This document shows, one piece after another, positions 5,050 through 59,880 of a DNA stretch of 64,000 nt. The stretch comes from Thiothrix sp. (lineage in GTDB: Bacteria > Pseudomonadota > Gammaproteobacteria > Thiotrichales > Thiotrichaceae), in assembly GCA_008015155.1 (NCBI GenBank), contig SSFA01000010.1:9191-73190 (forward strand), read 5' to 3'. Within the stretch, counting starts at the first letter, position 1, and each line of letters begins with the position of its first letter. The notes beneath the pieces are model-generated. The model made no database searches. It worked only from the letters and a program-made list of their open reading frames with translations, and had not been told where the DNA came from. The translations under genes and the position numbers were made by a program.

Positions 5050-5253
5050 ACACATTCCTCAAGGTAAATTAGCTATGACTTAATAAAATAAAGAAGCAAT
5101 TCATGCGCCAACTAATTGCTGCATAACCTCATAGGCTAGTCTATTTCCCCAAAAAATGTGAATGCCGTTATATAAATTACGTGATCTAGGCTTGCGCTGG
5201 CTGGGTGAGTGCTTATCATAAGCAGTTCTATTTATTTAATAAGAAAAATCATT

Positions 5254-5691
5254 ATGAAATTACAAATCATGCTGTTCGGGGCTATTAGCTTATTATCCGG
5301 CTGTGCTGCAGTACCTAATGTGGTCGCGCCACCGAGTATTTCAGTGCAAGATGTCAGTTTACAAAGCTTGTCTCTCACTCAAGGCACTGCGTTAGTTGCC
5401 TTACAAGTGACTAACCCGAATGCGTTCCCGCTTCCCCTTGAAGGCATTCAATACAATTTGCGCTTAAATGGTACACAGGTCGCAAGCGGGGATCAGCGCC
5501 AATCGATGTATTTGCAACCCAATCAACCGACTGCTGTGCAAATCCCAGTGCAATTGGAGCTTGCGACTATCATGCGGCTAGCGCCTGTGCTTTGGCAGAG
5601 TCGCTCAGCTCAATACCAACTCGATGGCGCAGTACGCCTGCCATTTATTAGTATCCCGTTTCAACGCCAAGGTGGGGTGGGGGTGAATTAA
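5254..5691 (+). CDS. LEA type-2 (NDR1/HIN1-like, water-stress domain) lipoprotein
   Basis: It begins MKLQIMLFGAISLLSGC, a signal peptide with a lipobox. The beta-rich body (SVQDVSLQSLSLTQGTALVALQVTNPNAFPLPLEGIQYNLRLNG) is typical of LEA_2 domains. Confidence 0.65.
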   Translation: MKLQIMLFGAISLLSGCAAVPNVVAPPSISVQDVSLQSLSLTQGTALVALQVTNPNAFPLPLEGIQYNLRLNGTQVASGDQRQSMYLQPNQPTAVQIPVQLELATIMRLAPVLWQSRSAQYQLDGAVRLPFISIPFQRQGGVGVN

Positions 5692-5728
5692 GCCATGTTT
5701 TATTTAGATAGCAGCTCACTACTGCTAT

Positions 5729-8700
5729 CTATTCACTCCCCGCCAATGCACCAAAAATCTCCGCCGGATGCAAAATCCGCTCACCATTCTCTAATTCCTC
5801 CACATAGCGCAAATAGCGCCATGCGTCGGGTGAGGCGTGGGTAATGCGGTCTTGTTTGATCATGGAATATTGTTGATTCCGATGCTGCGCTAGTGTGGCT
5901 AGGCATTCACCTGTTTTTAGATCCCAATATTGTGTGATGTTACCTGATGCGGTCACAAGTATTCGTCCATCGGGACTGAAGGCGACGGCACGGACTATGC
6001 TGTCATGTTTAAGCGTGAGTCGCCGCTCGCTGGAGCGGTTATCCCAGAGCGTGACAGTATTATCCTTAGAAGCAGTGGCGAGGTTGCTGCCATCGGGACT
6101 AAAGGCGACGGCACGAACTATGCTGTCATGTTTAAGCGTGAGTCGCCGCTCGCCGGAACGGGCATCCCAAAGTGTGACGATTTTATCCTTGGAAGCGGTG
6201 GCGAGGGTGCTGCCATCGGGACTAAAGGTGACGGCACGAACTATTCTTTCATGTTTCAGGATGAGTCGCCGCTCGCCGGAACAGGCATCCCAAAGTATGA
6301 CGGTTTTATCCTTGGAAGCGGTGGCGAGGGTGCTGCTGTTGGGACTAAAGGCGAGGGCGCTAACCTCTTTGTCATGTTTAAGGGTGAGTTGTCGCTCGCC
6401 GGAGCGGGCATCCCAGAGCGCGGCAGTATTATCCTTGGAAGCGGTAGCGAGGGTGGTGCCATTGGGACTGAAGGCGACGACGTTAATCCCTAGATTATGT
6501 TTAAAAGTGAGTTGCAGCTCGCCGGAGCGGGCATCCCAAAGTGAAGCGGTATCGTCCCATGATGTGGTGGCGAGGTTGCTGCCGTCGGGACTGAAGACGA
6601 CTGATAGAAATATTTTGTTATGTTTAAAAATGAGTTGTCGCTCGCCGGAGCGGACATCCCAGAGCGCGGCAGTGTGATTGTCAGATGCGATGGCAAGAGT
6701 GCTGCCGTCGGGACTGAAGGCGACGGCGCGAACCAAATTCTCATGCAAGAGGACGAGTCGTCGCTCGCCGGAGCGGGCATCCCAGAGCGCGGCGGTGTGA
6801 TCATAAGACGCGGTGGCGAGGGAGCTACCGTCGGGACTGAGGGCGACGGCGGTAACTTTTTGGTCATGTTGAAAAGTTAGTCGTCGCTCGCCGGAGCGGG
6901 CATCCCAGAGCGCGGCGGTGTGATCCCATGACGCGGTGGCGATCGTGCTGCCGTCGGGACTGAAGGCAATAGCATTAATAGCATTTGTATGCCCCGCCTG
7001 AATCTGTGCCCAAACTTTTGCAGGAAGCTTATCAGTTGTGCGCTGATTGGGTGCTAGCGGAAAGTCCGCTCCCCATGCAGCGCCGCTATTCCGAATCCAT
7101 TGCGAATGGCTCAACTCACAACTACTTACATCCAAATCGTTTAAGTCATTCAAACGCCATATACTAGCCATGAGATTAGTTTTCTGAAAAACACAAGCCT
7201 GAAACCGACAATGCTGAAATTCGGCGAGCCACCCTTGGGCTTCAGTGAAATCACAGCGCTGAAATTCAATATACTTAAACTGCACTTGATCAAGGCGTGC
7301 GCTGCGCCAATTAATATCGTGTAGTTTTAAGGATTGCGCAGCAGTACCTTGAATTTTCCACTGGAATAAATCTATACCCGCTAAGTCCATACGTTGATAC
7401 TGAAAAACCAAACCGCGCTCAGCAAGTTTCAACCAGATTTGCAAGACTAAGCGACTGCTAGTTGGCTCATAATCCGCCAGCCACGCAGCCAAGCTTTTTT
7501 CATAGCTAGCATGTTTGCTACGTTCTATTAAAATAAGCTGGGTTAGAAATTCCAAGGTTTCGGGTGAGGGTGTGGTTTCAAATTGCCAATAGCTACGCTC
7601 TTGAGTCAAGAGGCCACGCTGCATATAAGCCGCTAAGAAAAATTCCTGCAAAGAACTGTGCGCAAAACGGAAGCTATTCTCATCAGGGCGCACAATAAAG
7701 GTCGCGGTGCGTAAATCCTCTTTCAGCACATTGCGGTCTAAATTTTGATAAGCGCTAGCGAGCTTGATATTTTTAAACAGAAACTCATCCAACCAAGTAT
7801 CTAATTCATCCACATTCCATTGACGTTGCCCACTTTTCCACAAAGCAGCCGCGAGGTATTCCATGAGCTGTTTTTTGTGCTGCGGCGAGAATTGGTGTTT
7901 GCCATCATCGCGGCGCAACCAATGTTCCACCATACTTTGATAGAGCATCACGCCTTGAATCGGTTCGCCACGCATCGCCAGTTGCTCGATATCTGGAATA
8001 TGCTGTGCGATTAAAGACAAGGTATAGGGGCGTTCCGCCATTTCTGGCAAATTGTGTACCGAACGAATTAAGTCGAGCACTTCATTCAGTGCAGCATCGT
8101 CGAGTTTTAGACTTTTTTGTAAATAGGTTTCGATTTGCGCTTCCGTGAACGGCAACAGCACTAAGGCTTGATAATCCTCGCCTTTAATCCCATCCCGATG
8201 TTCACTAGTGAGCATGGCATTCTGCTCTTGAATACTACGGAAATAATGTGAGCGGCAAGAAATTAGCATTTTCCCCGCATTTGGATGTTGGGTTTTGTCT
8301 TGTTTCAAGGGTGGCAAAATGCGCCATAATTGCCGAATAAAATCACTTGCTTGCTTGGGCGGCATGTGCACAATCACTTCATCCAAGCCATCCCAAATAA
8401 TCAATGCTTTGTGGTTTTGCATTTGTTGAATCATATCAGCGGGCTTGATGCCAACATCCTCGTGTCCGCCTTTCCAGCTTTTTTTCAGAATATGCTCAAG
8501 AATCTCGCTTAAGGTAAAATCAACGCGCTTATCCCAAGTGTATTCGCGCAGATCAATATAAATCGGCAAAGGCAAGGCTTTGTTAGTCGCCCGCTCTGCC
8601 AATAATTCACGGGTTAAAGCCTTGCAGGTCGTGGTTTTACCCATGCCATATTCACCCAACAAAGCGCAAAACGGCGGCGAATGTTCTTGCTTGAGCCAGT

Positions 8701-9763
8701 CCATCAAGTAATCAGTAGCAATAACCCCTTCTTCTGTTTTCTGCTCCCGCTCCAAGAGATTTTGTACGTCGCGAATTTGTGTGACATGGCCTTTGGTGGC
8801 GGTGTAATTTGGGTCGAAGTCTTTGTCAGCGGCCCATTGGGTGAAGGTTTCTAAGCCGCTTAAACAACTGTCTGGCGCTAGTGGTTTAGCGTTTTTTTTT
8901 AAGGTTTTATCCAAACTTGCTTCAATTGCCTTGAATAAAGCTGCAATAAAAGCCTCATTTTTAGGCTTTCTGTAGTCGCTATAAAACTTGTCGTCGAGGC
9001 GAAAAATTTGAATGTCTTGCAGACCTTTTAAGTCATGGTTTTGGAAATCGATGGGGCTTAAGCCAACAGGGATAGCTTTACCGCTGGCTAAAAACTGGGG
9101 AAGTTCAAACTTGCTAATATATTGGCTGTTCAGGAAGGAGAGGCTGACTAACAGTAAACCAAAATCATGGGTGTTTAGTGCCTCTTTAATCGTGGCATCC
9201 CAATCTTCGCCCAGCACAATCTCCCAATCGCCCCAAAGCTCATACCGATATTTTTTAGATACATTGAAGTGAAGCTTTAACTGATCCAGAAACTTTTTAA
9301 CCTGAACGTCATCACGATGTGCATAGCTAATAAACAGTTTGATCAGGCGTTTGCTTTCGGTCGGAATCGCCCGTGATGCTAGCAGCGGTTCTTCAGGCTT
9401 TAGATGAGTTTCTTCTGCGGAATAACGCTCAATATCCTCAACTGTACTATCTTCGCCACTAAACCAGCAAACTCGTTCGCTAGCGTCACTGCGTTTTTGA
9501 TTATCCACCTCTAATTGAAAAACTACCTTGGCTTCGTCGGCTGCACTATTCACTCGATTACGAAACGAGCGAAAACTTTCTTGCGCTTTAGGGGTATCTT
9601 GATCAGGAAAAAGCGTGTTGAGTGCATCGGCATAGTTTAAGGATGCGCCATTGATGAGCGGCAAAAGCTGCTGGTGGCGTTTGAAATCCGCTTTGCCTAA
9701 TTCGTCTTGCAGCTTGCTCAAGGATTTTTCGACTTGAGAGCGAGTGAGCTTAAGTTCTGACAT
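5729..9763 (-). CDS. STAND NTPase with an N-terminal TIR domain, a central NACHT module, pentapeptide repeats and nine C-terminal WD40 repeats (NLR-like candidate defence protein)
   Basis: This is a single 1344-aa ORF with GGAG 8 nt upstream of the ATG. The TIR-like segment covers roughly residues 140-285 (LFISYAHRDD ... SQYISKFELPQF). The P-loop GEYGMGKTT is at nt 8630-8656. The NACHT-type Walker B LIIWDGLDEV is at nt 8378-8404. Pentapeptide-like repeats cover roughly residues 790-900. Nine WD40 units (xFSPDGSxLATAS.D.TA.LWDARSGER) cover residues 924-1293. Confidence 0.9.
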   Translation of the reverse strand: MSELKLTRSQVEKSLSKLQDELGKADFKRHQQLLPLINGASLNYADALNTLFPDQDTPKAQESFRSFRNRVNSAADEAKVVFQLEVDNQKRSDASERVCWFSGEDSTVEDIERYSAEETHLKPEEPLLASRAIPTESKRLIKLFISYAHRDDVQVKKFLDQLKLHFNVSKKYRYELWGDWEIVLGEDWDATIKEALNTHDFGLLLVSLSFLNSQYISKFELPQFLASGKAIPVGLSPIDFQNHDLKGLQDIQIFRLDDKFYSDYRKPKNEAFIAALFKAIEASLDKTLKKNAKPLAPDSCLSGLETFTQWAADKDFDPNYTATKGHVTQIRDVQNLLEREQKTEEGVIATDYLMDWLKQEHSPPFCALLGEYGMGKTTTCKALTRELLAERATNKALPLPIYIDLREYTWDKRVDFTLSEILEHILKKSWKGGHEDVGIKPADMIQQMQNHKALIIWDGLDEVIVHMPPKQASDFIRQLWRILPPLKQDKTQHPNAGKMLISCRSHYFRSIQEQNAMLTSEHRDGIKGEDYQALVLLPFTEAQIETYLQKSLKLDDAALNEVLDLIRSVHNLPEMAERPYTLSLIAQHIPDIEQLAMRGEPIQGVMLYQSMVEHWLRRDDGKHQFSPQHKKQLMEYLAAALWKSGQRQWNVDELDTWLDEFLFKNIKLASAYQNLDRNVLKEDLRTATFIVRPDENSFRFAHSSLQEFFLAAYMQRGLLTQERSYWQFETTPSPETLEFLTQLILIERSKHASYEKSLAAWLADYEPTSSRLVLQIWLKLAERGLVFQYQRMDLAGIDLFQWKIQGTAAQSLKLHDINWRSARLDQVQFKYIEFQRCDFTEAQGWLAEFQHCRFQACVFQKTNLMASIWRLNDLNDLDVSSCELSHSQWIRNSGAAWGADFPLAPNQRTTDKLPAKVWAQIQAGHTNAINAIAFSPDGSTIATASWDHTAALWDARSGERRLTFQHDQKVTAVALSPDGSSLATASYDHTAALWDARSGERRLVLLHENLVRAVAFSPDGSTLAIASDNHTAALWDVRSGERQLIFKHNKIFLSVVFSPDGSNLATTSWDDTASLWDARSGELQLTFKHNLGINVVAFSPNGTTLATASKDNTAALWDARSGERQLTLKHDKEVSALAFSPNSSTLATASKDKTVILWDACSGERRLILKHERIVRAVTFSPDGSTLATASKDKIVTLWDARSGERRLTLKHDSIVRAVAFSPDGSNLATASKDNTVTLWDNRSSERRLTLKHDSIVRAVAFSPDGRILVTASGNITQYWDLKTGECLATLAQHRNQQYSMIKQDRITHASPDAWRYLRYVEELENGERILHPAEIFGALAGSE
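5885..6994 (-). repeat. Nine tandem 123-bp coding repeats (WD40 blades) with high nucleotide identity
   Basis: The string catcggg recurs at 5968, 6091 and 6214, exactly 123 nt apart. Long stretches match between adjacent units, for example gggactaaaggcgacggcacgaactatgctgtcatgtttaagcgtgagtcgccgctcgc. Confidence 0.9.
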
Positions 9764-9956
9764 ATTCTAGCTCCAGCGGATTTGATTATTTTTTAGCATA
9801 AGCTGCATATATGAAATATTCAATAACGAATTTAACGATTATTTAACGATCAAATCGAGGTGCTTTACCAAGAGTCTCACCTAATTGAGTGATAGCCTAA
9901 TCAACTCAAAATCTAGAAAATAAGCTGCTTACGACAAAGACAAAGCGAGGTTGTTT

Positions 9957-10619
9957 ATGCGTTTCTTAAAATCAGCCAACTTAGCTTGGCTGCAAAGCTC
10001 ATTGCTAGTGTTAGTACTCTTTCTAAGTCTACCGATTCAAGCTGCTACGCTACTCAAGCCAGTGGATACAGCGGCCAAAGACCCTAGTTTTCTAGCCTTC
10101 CGTACTCAGCTTCTCAAAACGATTGAACGTAAGGATGCTAAAGCTTTGTTAGCTGTGGTGCATAAGGATATTAAAGCCTCATTCGGGATGGAGAATGGCA
10201 TTGAGGACTTTAAAGAAATGTGGGGGCTGAATAAGCCAGCGACCAGCCAACTTTGGTCTGAATTGAGTAAAGTACTGAAAATGGGTGGTTCTTTTAGCAA
10301 TAAAACTACCTTTATTGCTCCCTATGTATTTAGTGAGTGGCCAGATGACAAGGACGCGTTTGAAAATTGGGCAGTGATCGCTAAGGATGTCAATATTCGC
10401 GCTAAGCCCAGTACCAGTGCAGCTGTATTAAAAAAAGTCAGCTACGAAATTCTGCCGATTGAGTTTAGTGAGAATGAGAAATGGGTCACTGTGAAATTAG
10501 GCAATGGCAAAAAAGGCTATATCGCGAGCCAATATATTCGAAGCTCAGTGGATTACCGCGCTTTTTTTGAAAAAATAAAGGGTCGCTGGCAAATGACGGT
10601 TTTTATTGCAGGTGACTAG
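9957..10619 (+). CDS. Secreted protein with a C-terminal bacterial SH3 (SH3b) domain
   Basis: It has a signal peptide (MRFLKSANLAWLQSSLLVLVLFLSLPIQA). The C-terminus VNIRAKPSTSAAVLKKVSYEILPIE...WVTVKLGNGKKGYIASQYI fits the SH3b pattern. Confidence 0.7.
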   Translation: MRFLKSANLAWLQSSLLVLVLFLSLPIQAATLLKPVDTAAKDPSFLAFRTQLLKTIERKDAKALLAVVHKDIKASFGMENGIEDFKEMWGLNKPATSQLWSELSKVLKMGGSFSNKTTFIAPYVFSEWPDDKDAFENWAVIAKDVNIRAKPSTSAAVLKKVSYEILPIEFSENEKWVTVKLGNGKKGYIASQYIRSSVDYRAFFEKIKGRWQMTVFIAGD

Positions 10620-18887: not shown

Positions 18888-20079
18888 TAGTCTCGACTTA
18901 ATCTGACACATCGCCTTGAAAAGGTGAGAGTTACCCGTTTTGATTGTGGGTGTCGAATCCTTAATCAAAACCTAAGAGGTAACTCTCATGCTTCATAGTC
19001 ACTATCCAATCATCAAACACAAGACCGGTTTACTCAATCTGGCAGAGGAACTGAGTAATGTTTCCAGAGCCTGCAAAGTGATGGGTGTGTCTCGTGATAC
19101 GTTTTATCGTTATCGCGAATTAGTGAACCATGGCGGTGTGGAGGCGCTGATCGAAAAGAGTCGCAGACGTCCCAATCTCAAGAACCGTGTCGAAGAAACG
19201 GTTGAGCAGGCCGTGAGGGATTACGCGATTGCCTTTCCGGCTCATGGTCAGCACAGAACCAGCAATGAACTGCGTAAAAAAGGCGTGTTTGTGTCTGGCA
19301 GTGGCGTCCGCTCAATTTGGTTGCGACATGATCTAGAGAACTTTAAAAAGCGCCTGAAAGCCTTAGAAGCCAAAGTGGCCCGCGATGGTATTCAGCTTAC
19401 TGATGAACAGATTGCGGCACTTGAGCGCAAAAAACACGACGATGAAGCCTGTGGTGAGATTGAAACCGCGCATCCTGGTTATCTTGGATCGCAAGACACG
19501 TTTTATGTCGGAAACCTCAAGGGCGTGGGTCGTCTCTATCAGCAAACATATGTCGATACGTACAGCAAAGTCGCGCACTGCAAGCTCTATACGACGAAAA
19601 CACCGATCACCGCAGCAGACTTACTGAACGACAAAGTATTGCCGTTTTATGAGTCACAGCAGTTGCCAGTGCTGCGTATTTTAACGGACCGGGGCACCGA
19701 GTATTGCGGCAAGGTCGAGCACCATGATTACCAGCTTTATCTGGCGATTAATGATATCGACCACACGAAAACCAAAGCAATGTCGCCGCAAACCAATGGC
19801 ATCTGTGAGCGGTTCCATAAAACCATCCTGAGCGAATTTTATCAGGTGACTTTCCGCAAAAAGTTGTATCAAACGCTGGAGGAGCTACAAAAAGATCTGG
19901 ACGAATGGCTGTCTTACTACAACAATGAACGAACTCATCAGGGCAAAATGTGTAACGGTAGAACGCCTGTTGAAACCTTGCTTGATGGGAAGCGGATTTG
20001 GGCGGAAAAAAATCTGACTCAAATCTAATCGGACAGACACCCGCACAAAACGGGGAGCTGTCAGATAAAGTCTGAGCTA
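18888..20079 (+). mobile_element. IS481-family insertion sequence
   Basis: It holds a single DDE transposase ORF. The terminal inverted repeats are imperfect: tagtctcgacttaatctgaca (18888-18908) against the reverse complement of 20059-20079 (tagctcagactttatctgaca), 16 of 21 matches. An inner cccgttttg...gggtgtc match is found on both sides. The exact ends are uncertain by a few nt. Confidence 0.7.
18988..20028 (+). CDS. IS481-family transposase (rve/DDE integrase core)
   Basis: This 346-aa ORF has an N-terminal HTH (VSRACKVMGVSRDTFYRYRE). The DDE context is LGSQDTFYVG, ILTDRGTEYCG and SPQTNGICERFHKT. Confidence 0.9.
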   Translation: MLHSHYPIIKHKTGLLNLAEELSNVSRACKVMGVSRDTFYRYRELVNHGGVEALIEKSRRRPNLKNRVEETVEQAVRDYAIAFPAHGQHRTSNELRKKGVFVSGSGVRSIWLRHDLENFKKRLKALEAKVARDGIQLTDEQIAALERKKHDDEACGEIETAHPGYLGSQDTFYVGNLKGVGRLYQQTYVDTYSKVAHCKLYTTKTPITAADLLNDKVLPFYESQQLPVLRILTDRGTEYCGKVEHHDYQLYLAINDIDHTKTKAMSPQTNGICERFHKTILSEFYQVTFRKKLYQTLEELQKDLDEWLSYYNNERTHQGKMCNGRTPVETLLDGKRIWAEKNLTQI

Positions 20080-58839: not shown

Positions 58840-59880
58840 ATGTCTAAAATTTGGACGCTTGCCGCACTTGCCGAGGCTACGCAAACCACAGTACAAGGTA
58901 ACCCCGATAAATCCGTTCAAGCGGTTGCTTCGATTGAGCAGGCTCAAGCTCATGAACTTAGTTATATTCGTGATCGTAAGTATTTTAATCTACTTAATAC
59001 TTCTAAAGCAGGTGCGCTAATTCTCACTGCCGATTTAGCAACTCACTATCAAGGTGATGCGCTTATTAGCAAAAATCCTTATCTGACTTATGCGCGAATC
59101 GTTAGCTTATTTAATCCCATGCATCGGCCTGACGCGGGTATTCACCCTAGTGCAGTGATTGCCGCTGATGTGATTCTAGGAGCCGATGTCCATATTGGAG
59201 CTAATGTTGTCTTAGAGTCAGGCGTCAATATTGGAGCAGGTACGGTCATTAGTGCAGGTTGTTATCTAGGGCGCAATGTACTCTTAGGTGCTGATTCGTT
59301 TCTCTATCCGCAAGTGACTTTGTATAGTGAAACTGAAATTGGTGAGCGCGCGATTATTCATTCGGGTGCAGTAATCGGGGCAGATGGCTTTGGTTTTGTC
59401 CCTGAATCGACCGGATGGTATAAAATACCACAGGTTGGCAAGGTAATTTTAGGCGATGATGTGGAAATTGGGGCCAATACCTGTATTGACCGGGCAGCGA
59501 TGGGCAGTACACGCCTAGGCCATGGCGTGAAGTTAGATAACCTCATTCATATTGCTCACAATGTACAAATCGGTGACCATACGGTGATTGCTGCCTGCAC
59601 CGGTATTGCAGGTAGCGCCAAAATTGGTAGTCATTGCCAAATTTCTGGAATGTGTTCGATTGCAGGGCATCTGGTGATCGCTGATCGTGTCACTATCACC
59701 GGTACTAGCTTTGTTATTAATTCGATCAATGAACCGGGTGTATATTCTTCAGGCGTTACGGTTGAAGAGCACGGATTATGGCGTAAAAATGCGGTACGTT
59801 TCCGGCAGTTAGATCAAATGGCGAGGCGTTTAGCGAGTCTGGAAAAGCAATTGGCTGAGTTACAAAACAATAAGGATTAA
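58840..59880 (+). CDS. lpxD: UDP-3-O-acylglucosamine N-acyltransferase
   Basis: It has left-handed beta-helix hexapeptide repeats and an LpxD-type N-terminal domain. Its position is syntenic. Confidence 0.95.
   Translation: MSKIWTLAALAEATQTTVQGNPDKSVQAVASIEQAQAHELSYIRDRKYFNLLNTSKAGALILTADLATHYQGDALISKNPYLTYARIVSLFNPMHRPDAGIHPSAVIAADVILGADVHIGANVVLESGVNIGAGTVISAGCYLGRNVLLGADSFLYPQVTLYSETEIGERAIIHSGAVIGADGFGFVPESTGWYKIPQVGKVILGDDVEIGANTCIDRAAMGSTRLGHGVKLDNLIHIAHNVQIGDHTVIAACTGIAGSAKIGSHCQISGMCSIAGHLVIADRVTITGTSFVINSINEPGVYSSGVTVEEHGLWRKNAVRFRQLDQMARRLASLEKQLAELQNNKD

Follow-up and report, generated by a model that had tools for sequence, protein, structure and literature searches.

A Thiothrix gene encodes a NACHT clade 11 protein that combines NNH6, TIR, pentapeptide and WD40 modules, a candidate single-gene immune sensor-effector

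Introduction

Bacterial NACHT proteins related to NLR immune receptors (bNACHT proteins) were catalogued by Kibby et al. in "Bacterial NLR-related proteins protect against phage" (bioRxiv 10.1101/2022.07.19.500537), which also introduced the NNH domains. Here we describe a gene of this kind in a 64,000-nucleotide stretch of DNA from Thiothrix sp. (GenBank assembly GCA_008015155.1, contig SSFA01000010.1, positions 9,191 to 73,190); this whole stretch is called the window, and all coordinates refer to it. The gene lies at 5729..9763 on the minus strand, and its product falls in NACHT clade 11 of the catalogue. In the part of Table S1 that was consulted, nearly every clade 11 row consists of a cap and an effector followed by NACHT, Pentapeptide and BetaPropeller/WD40. 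Among the caps are NNH5, NNH6, EAD4 and HTH, and among the effectors NA-iREase1, TIR, PNPase, caspase, SIR2, calcineurin-like and trypsin (Kibby et al.). Examples are TIR+NACHT+Pentapeptide_4+BetaPropeller from Actinomyces, NNH6+NACHT+Pentapeptide+BetaPropeller from Frankia sp. R43, NNH6+PNPase+NACHT+WD40 from Cellvibrio, in which NNH6 caps a PNPase effector, and OQX01407.1 from Thiothrix lacustris. The NACHT-pentapeptide-β-propeller chassis, the NNH6 cap and the TIR effector of the window protein are thus all present in clade 11. NNH6 and TIR are not annotated on one and the same protein in these rows, and residues 115–355 of the Frankia row carry no annotation.

In the same study 27 bNACHT genes were tested in a phage panel; those that could be located belong to clades 6, 14, 15 and 20 (Kibby et al., parts consulted). 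The panel included bNACHT09 (Escherichia coli WP_032248782.1, TIR_2+NACHT, clade 15), cited here for its inclusion only, and other bNACHT proteins of the panel gave phage protection (bioRxiv 10.1101/2022.07.19.500537). Like the window protein, bNACHT09 is a single-gene system with a TIR_2 effector N-terminal of NACHT; unlike it, bNACHT09 belongs to clade 15 rather than clade 11, is much shorter and has no NNH6 domain or pentapeptide/WD40 sensor annotated.

The predicted logic of the window protein, in which a repeat sensor and a STAND or scaffold oligomeriser are combined with clustered TIR domains that carry a catalytic Glu on helix alpha-C, is common to plant TIR-NLRs (RPP1, ROQ1) and SARM1. 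Plant TIR-NLRs and SARM1 are TIR NADases activated by oligomerisation. The plant receptors, however, use NB-ARC and leucine-rich repeats instead of NACHT and WD40, SARM1 has no NTPase, and there is no sequence-level orthology to the window protein. A STAND NTPase followed by many WD40 blades is also found in fungal HET-E/HET-D/NWD and in Apaf-1. Their effectors are HET or CARD rather than TIR; Apaf-1 has an NB-ARC module, and neither HET-E nor Apaf-1 contains a pentapeptide segment or NNH6.

Below we present the evidence for a self-contained immune sensor-effector of bNACHT clade 11, in which trigger sensing by the WD40 repeats would lead to NACHT oligomerisation, activation of a predicted TIR NADase and abortive infection. 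We hold this reading to be probable rather than secure.

Results

An intact gene encodes an NNH6-TIR-NACHT-pentapeptide-WD40 protein

The gene is one unbroken open reading frame (ORF) that starts with ATG and specifies 1344 amino acids plus a stop codon, i.e., a complete coding sequence. The encoded protein is 100% identical to GenBank TXH70622.1, deposited as "MAG: TIR domain-containing protein [Thiothrix sp.]" (MAG, metagenome-assembled genome). Direct reading of the sequence revealed a GGAG Shine-Dalgarno-like motif (9771..9774, minus strand) 7 nt upstream of the ATG. Scans for promoters and terminators gave no signal exceeding shuffle expectation.

Pfam domain calls were judged against the per-family score cut-offs (gathering scores). 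The initial annotation, made from the letters of the sequence, had described a single uninterrupted ORF with five modules, and this description stands: TIR_2, NACHT and nine WD40 repeats exceed their Pfam thresholds, and the motifs it quoted were all located (ISYAHRDD at residues 145–152, FELPQF at 219–224, GEYGMGKTT at 370–378 and DGLDE at 458–462). The order of the modules is NNH6-TIR-NACHT-pentapeptide-WD40, with a conserved C-terminal tail as a sixth element. As far as computation goes, the results support the view that the 1344-aa product belongs to the STAND/NLR type and unites an intact NACHT ATPase with a repeat sensor and a TIR domain.

The annotation had further suggested that this architecture may lie outside any described family, which proved incorrect. 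NNH6 is a Pfam family, the chassis is that of clade 11, and a clade 11 entry of Table S1, OQX01407.1 (our homologue P0016), shares 68% identity with the window protein over query residues ~310–924. Judged by this identity and by the shared module order, the window protein is a member of bNACHT clade 11.

The architecture is shared by more than 100 homologues from several phyla. Their hosts include Thiothrix, Contendobacter, Plasticicumulans and Endothiovibrio among Gammaproteobacteria and Accumulibacter and Nitrosomonas among Betaproteobacteria, as well as Acidobacteriota and Gemmatimonadota. A group of homologues apparently without NNH6-TIR (P0015–P0019) was considered as an effector-less subtype and not counted as such: P0015, the sole case checked, looks like a split gene. 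In this Thiothrix lacustris homologue (P0015/P0256/P0257), OQW98015.1 (320 aa) and OQW98016.1 (711 aa) carry neighbouring locus tags, and the same cluster contains an intact member of 1367 aa, which points to a frameshift, a pseudogene or an assembly error.

The NACHT switch is conserved

The NACHT NTPase core comprises residues 366–551 (8111..8668, minus strand) and matches Pfam NACHT (PF05729) with 34.9 bits against a cut-off of 26.7. The Walker A motif GEYGMGKTT (residues 370–378) is encoded at 8630–8656 and the Walker B motif DGLDE (residues 458–462) at 8378–8392, both on the minus strand. A Walker B signature of the form D[GAS]hDE distinguishes NACHT from other STAND NTPases (Kibby et al., in the part consulted), and DGLDE fits it.

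For conservation counts, 87 homologues were aligned over residues 1–800. K376, D458 and E462 are retained in all 87 and D461 in 86, while the C503-R504 pair and the FAH702SxxQEF motif are invariant. Since the Walker A, Walker B and downstream motifs are invariant or nearly so, the NACHT ATPase looks functional. The NACHT module with its P-loop and diagnostic Walker B, as first annotated, is therefore confirmed by both the Pfam score and motif conservation. The core is followed by a conserved block (residues 552–745; 7529..8110, minus strand) that contains FAHSSLQEF with His702. This block is named by no domain model; by analogy with STAND architecture, it is probably the helical and winged-helix extension of the module.

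The NACHT core and the WD40 sensor set the window protein apart from Avs/AVAST proteins, whose STAND NTPase is not of the NACHT type and whose sensor is TPR-like. Consistently, no Avs model was among the PADLOC matches of the window protein.

The TIR domain has a glutamate at the position of NADase catalysis

The TIR domain, predicted to be the NAD+-cleaving effector, spans residues 144–256 (8996..9334, minus strand) and matches Pfam TIR_2 with 39.2 bits against a cut-off of 28. To compare it with solved structures, we used a profile built from residues 131–345 of the window protein and 27 diverse homologue fragments. The best sequence-profile matches were the bacterial TIR NADases AbTir, BtTir and PdTIR (7uwg/7uxu/8g83, 7uxr and 3h16, respectively), with E-values of 3.8e-7 for 7uxr, 5.6e-5 for 3h16, and 1.3e-4 and 2.5e-4 for 7uwg and 8g83. 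The S-x-x-F..S..[YF]I...EL segment of the window TIR aligns with their WxxxE catalytic helix. In particular, the alignment pairs ..SQYISKFELP.. of the query with ..KKDW-TNYELD.. of AbTir, placing Glu220 opposite Glu208 of AbTir, which is catalytic and lies in the WxxxE helix; the E208A mutant is inactive.

Glu220 (codon 9104..9106, minus strand), the predicted catalytic Glu of helix alpha-C, is retained in 83 of the 87 homologues. In an AlphaFold2 (AF2) model of residues 131–345, the TIR part has a pLDDT above 90, and Glu220 lies in the helix of residues 214–227, the one after strand βC. Foldseek matched this model with probability 1.0 to TLR1/2, MyD88, SPARTA TIR-APAZ, AbTir, SpbK, SARM1 and RPP1. 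The TIR match and the glutamate were the two points on which the original TIR call had been staked; the family score, the fold model and the NADase matches support the former, and the AbTir alignment together with conservation supports the latter.

AbTir, BtTir and PdTIR differ from the window protein in that they are stand-alone or coiled-coil TIRs without a STAND module. A further difference is that the Trp of their WxxxE motif is replaced by Tyr/Phe-Ile. In most cyclase-type TIRs, a Trp stands four residues before the Glu and matters for cyclic ADP-ribose products. At this position (E-4) the window protein has Ile216, conserved in 83/87 homologues, and the preceding position (E-5) is Tyr or Phe in 81/87; HMMER aligns E-5 to the Trp by means of a one-residue gap.

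The gene is a solitary accessory gene

A LEA_2 protein gene (5209–5691) and an SH3_3 protein gene (9951–10619) flank the NLR gene, and further out the window holds ordinary metabolic genes. Neighbourhood annotation thus agrees with the LEA_2 and SH3-type neighbours, and with the lack of a defence island, that had been noted at first. Probing GTDB representative genomes with the transglutaminase-like gene nearby, we found four syntenic loci, two in Thiothrix and two in Thiolinea MAGs, at 81–87% identity. All four share the order HopJ - transglutaminase-like - LEA_2 - SH3 - AEC transporter - hypothetical - NAD-GDH, and in none of them is the NLR gene present between LEA_2 and SH3. The interval between these two genes is a variable spot: it measures ~70–270 bp in L007–L009, and in the Thiothrix MAG L006 it holds an unrelated 382-aa lipoprotein-like gene (L006:8223-9371).

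Around the NLR gene, no direct or inverted repeats of at least 9 nt were found as insertion scars, and the two intergenic stretches beside it had no match in relatives. A tblastn search of residues 1–800 against plasmids returned no family member, only NACHT modules 22–25% identical in cyanobacterial and actinobacterial plasmids, and the same search against phages returned nothing.

The neighbourhoods of homologues differ from one genome to another. In the four that were inspected, the homologue is placed between dnaE and the ParE/RHH genes, next to Fic, HEPN/Polβ and PIN, next to PDDEXK and CHAT, and among plain housekeeping genes, respectively, so that three of the four include toxin-antitoxin or other conflict-type genes. 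Because the gene is absent from syntenic relatives, its homologues have unrelated neighbourhoods and the family is spread over several phyla, a vertically inherited housekeeping gene can be ruled out and a single-gene system is supported. Uniform vertical inheritance of housekeeping homologues, named at the outset as an observation that would overturn the immune reading, gave way to an accessory distribution. We conclude that the gene is accessory, stands alone and is not part of a defence island.

These data also bear on what the TIR domain would produce. It could generate a signal, a cyclic ADP-ribose isomer or related nucleotide, to switch on an effector whose gene lies elsewhere in the genome, as in the logic of Thoeris or type II CBASS, and not kill by NAD+ depletion. 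In favour, the ThsB-type TIR model of PADLOC matches the domain (1.9e-10), if weakly at 38 bits, and aromatic residues at the pre-Glu position correlate with cyclic products. Thoeris, however, pairs ThsB with an adjacent ThsA, and here the gap between LEA_2 and SH3_3 (window 5692–9950) contains the NLR gene only, with no co-inserted partner; nor was a conserved partner or neighbour gene common to the homologue loci in four genomes. Moreover, in helical register the E-4 position is the conserved Ile, which points to plain hydrolysis. We consider a signal-generating TIR unlikely and prefer direct NAD+ hydrolysis by the predicted effector.

WD40 repeats, pentapeptide segment and C-terminal tail

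The predicted ligand sensor consists of nine WD40 repeats of 41 aa (residues 925–1293; 5885..6991, minus strand). Pfam WD40 matches nine stretches spanning residues 923–1306, Tandem Repeats Finder reports a 123-bp period (41 aa), and repeat dissection gives the same number, in agreement with the nine blades counted initially. Units 1–8 are 56–80% identical to one another in protein and 70–88% in DNA; repeat 9 is divergent, with 29–46% identity to the other units in an ungapped 41-aa comparison that may understate it. Variability among the units is concentrated at positions 2–6, 22, 24, 26 and 27, which we take to fall in the top-face loops of the propeller. The between-repeat ratio of nonsynonymous to synonymous changes (dN/dS) is 1.07 at these positions, picked post hoc, against 0.29 elsewhere, a pattern that appears to show relaxed or diversifying constraint. 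Positive selection was considered and dropped: a dN/dS of ~1.07 is not above 1, and the choice of the variable positions was circular.

The G+C content of the WD40 region (5885–6991) is 0.56, with 0.58 at third codon positions (GC3), against 0.45 (GC3 0.455) in the N-terminal 2.7 kb of the gene and 0.45 in the remaining window. The offset recurs in the homologue of L004, a low-GC host, and not in that of L001. The repeats may have undergone biased gene conversion among themselves, or they may have an origin of their own.

Repeat number varies in the family. Homologues P0001–P0120 have 5, 7, 8, 9, 10, 12, 13 or 14 repeats with a mode of 14, suggesting expansion and contraction through unequal recombination. 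Complete homologues mostly have 13–14 repeats and ~1550–1615 aa. With nine blades instead of the ~14 of its clade 11 relatives, the window copy could be a decaying or altered one that has lost about five repeats, its two-propeller sensor crippled, and that is on its way to a pseudogene or changed in specificity; the shorter product and the divergent repeat 9 would fit such a history. Against it, the ORF runs unbroken through 4 kb, the ribosome-binding site, every catalytic motif and the conserved tail at the C-terminus are present, and homologue P0005, which is 60% identical over the N-terminal 924 aa and has 8 member sequences, likewise carries nine repeats. As P0005 has nine and variants with 5, 7, 8, 10 and 12 exist, repeat-number polymorphism looks like a family trait, and the ~240-aa shortfall is best read as a repeat-number variant rather than a truncation. 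Decay is accordingly quite improbable, and an intact sensor-effector remains our reading of the gene.

HET-E is known for highly similar WD repeats with few variable positions and for copy-number variation, and Apaf-1 has two propellers. The highly similar repeats of the window protein, varying at few positions and in copy number, resemble the former, and the 14-blade norm of its family is comparable to the latter. The HET-E resemblance has a bearing on function. Thiothrix is filamentous, and a STAND-type regulator or a cell-death or kin-control switch that answers an endogenous signal in a filamentous bacterium (compare HET-E allorecognition, or AfsR/MalT) would suit such a host. Multi-copy NACHT proteins are enriched in multicellular bacteria (Kibby et al., in the part consulted), and non-immune bacterial NLR-like regulators have been described. 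Yet the effector, a TIR whose catalytic-type Glu is conserved, is not a DNA-binding output, the closest syntenic relatives lack the gene, and many homologue hosts are non-filamentous, such as Nitrosomonas and Plasticicumulans. We therefore give a non-immune role little credence and retain immunity as the probable function.

The pentapeptide-repeat segment (residues ~789–889, ~20 pentads; 7097..7399, minus strand) follows the NACHT module and precedes the propeller region. Its presence, as initially annotated, is real: the ~20 pentads are visible, NCBIfam gives weak matches of residues 789–889 to HetL, Qnr and HalA, homologues carry PF00805/PF13599, and Table S1 shows such a segment to be a hallmark of clades 10 and 11. 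What did not stand is detection of the window copy on its own, since Pentapeptide_4 (residues 848–888) scores 33.8 bits, under the cut-off of 38. The match to NCBIfam "anti-phage Hailong effector HalA" covers residues 810–864 (7172–7336; E = 2.2e-5, far under cut-off) and probably reflects pentapeptide-like repeats in common, not homology.

The protein ends in a conserved tail, ..AWRYLRY..ILHPAEIFGALAGSE (residues 1294–1344; 5732..5884, minus strand), identified by BLAST against homologues. In the 40 rows inspected of 86 high-scoring segment pairs, the tail lies at the C-terminus or at most ~20 residues from it. A Pfam scan of residues 1294–1344 gave no match.

The NNH6 domain caps the protein

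The N-terminal ~140 aa, at first considered unassignable, turned out to be largely a known domain: the N-terminal ~120 aa correspond to Pfam NNH6 (NACHT N-terminal helical domain 6; PF22737), which matches residues 8–118 (9410..9742, minus strand) with 98 bits against a cut-off of 27. R29, R65, R68, D87, W100 and F101 are invariant among homologues. The AF2 model of the domain has a pLDDT of 80.6 and the element order H-H-S-H-H-S-S-H. A sequence profile found no match below E = 0.2 among solved structures in the PDB, and the best Foldseek match of the model to solved folds had E = 0.1, which is not significant. These sub-significant Foldseek matches are rich in winged-helix domains, a lead only.

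A word-indexed protein search with the NNH6 profile was uninformative, yielding a single fragment of 82 aa. When 1.84 billion representatives were searched exhaustively with the profile, 580 clusters were recovered, and among the 150 matches listed NNH6 is always N-terminal. Of 167 matches with enough downstream sequence, 151 run on into the family TIR. The other 16 do not match the TIR profile and have, by eye, a divergent TIR-like segment or none after NNH6; two proteins pass directly from NNH6 to NACHT. Such proteins may have inactivated or replaced effectors. Those noted without a family-TIR match include P0156, P0159, P0186, P0191, P0211, P0214, P0216, P0225 and P0232, and further P0241, P0244 and P0253 as well as P0082 and P0237. 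NNH6 is a cap specific to the NACHT clade of the window protein. A multi-input receptor, in which a winged-helix-like NNH6 with its invariant Arg residues (predicted topology H-S-H-H-S-S) gates the TIR or reads a second signal (nucleic acid or nucleotide) and the short pentapeptide β-helix is a DNA-mimic bait for phage DNA-binding proteins, is quite improbable. Neither role was found described for any bacterial NLR in the literature located.

Discussion

We propose the following sequence of events for the clade 11 sensor-effector. At rest, NACHT would be bound to ADP, and the pentapeptide helix and WD40 propeller would hold the protein monomeric and closed. The WD40 blades would then bind a trigger through their variable top-face loops; this is most likely a protein of the phage, or one of the host that infection has perturbed. 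Nucleotide exchange and subsequent NACHT oligomerisation would cluster the TIR domains, so that composite active sites could form around Glu220 and hydrolyse NAD+. The loss of NAD+ would finally arrest the growth of the infected cell, or kill it, before phage release. Of this scheme, the analysis establishes the domain identities, the intact catalytic and ATPase motifs, the clade membership, the accessory distribution and the lack of a partner gene; the trigger, oligomerisation, NADase activity and its product, and the phage-defence phenotype are proposed, as is any part played by NNH6, the pentapeptide segment and the C-terminal tail.

Several observations weigh against this mechanism. The window locus is no defence island. 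PADLOC has no model for the family and returned no bNACHT-type match; its only defence match was the generic ThsB-type TIR. No tested-bNACHT label was seen on the clade 11 rows of Table S1 consulted, and no experimentally tested clade 11 member was found in these rows or in the literature on the architecture, where only Aravind-group surveys turned up. Nine WD40 repeats against a family mode of 14 may mean that the sensor is altered or impaired. The top Foldseek matches of the TIR model are non-enzymatic TLR TIR domains, and the fold alone is no proof of catalysis. Finally, the equivalent of AbTir W204 is ambiguous, with Ile at E-4 and Tyr/Phe at E-5, so the product of the putative NADase is not predictable from sequence.

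The gene is nonetheless real and intact, its architecture is already catalogued in clade 11, and the functional reading appears reasonable. If the mechanism holds, the protein would be a compact bacterial counterpart of plant TIR-NLRs, with repeat sensor, NLR-type switch and TIR NADase in one polypeptide. Clade 11 as a whole joins a constant sensor chassis (pentapeptide and two WD40 propellers) to swapped effectors (TIR, PNPase, nucleases, caspase, SIR2). It thus offers a natural system in which to study sensor/effector recombination in NLRs and what WD40-type bacterial NLRs recognise. The gain in annotation is modest, from "TIR domain-containing protein" to NNH6-TIR-NACHT(clade 11)-pentapeptide-WD40, a candidate abortive-infection gene.

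Additional features of the window

A transposase/integrase ORF of 346 aa (HTH_29 + rve; 18988–20028, plus strand) lies ~9 kb from the NLR gene, and no link between the two was found. It and a second 346-aa ORF (58840–59880) were considered as copies of one insertion sequence; this was ruled out, as their 26% nucleotide identity is that of random sequences. Within the WD40 repeats, long ORFs in other frames overlap the NLR gene at 5895–6677 (plus strand), 6005–6493 (plus strand) and 6490–6867 (minus strand). They are themselves repetitive and look like shadow ORFs of the tandem repeats rather than genes.

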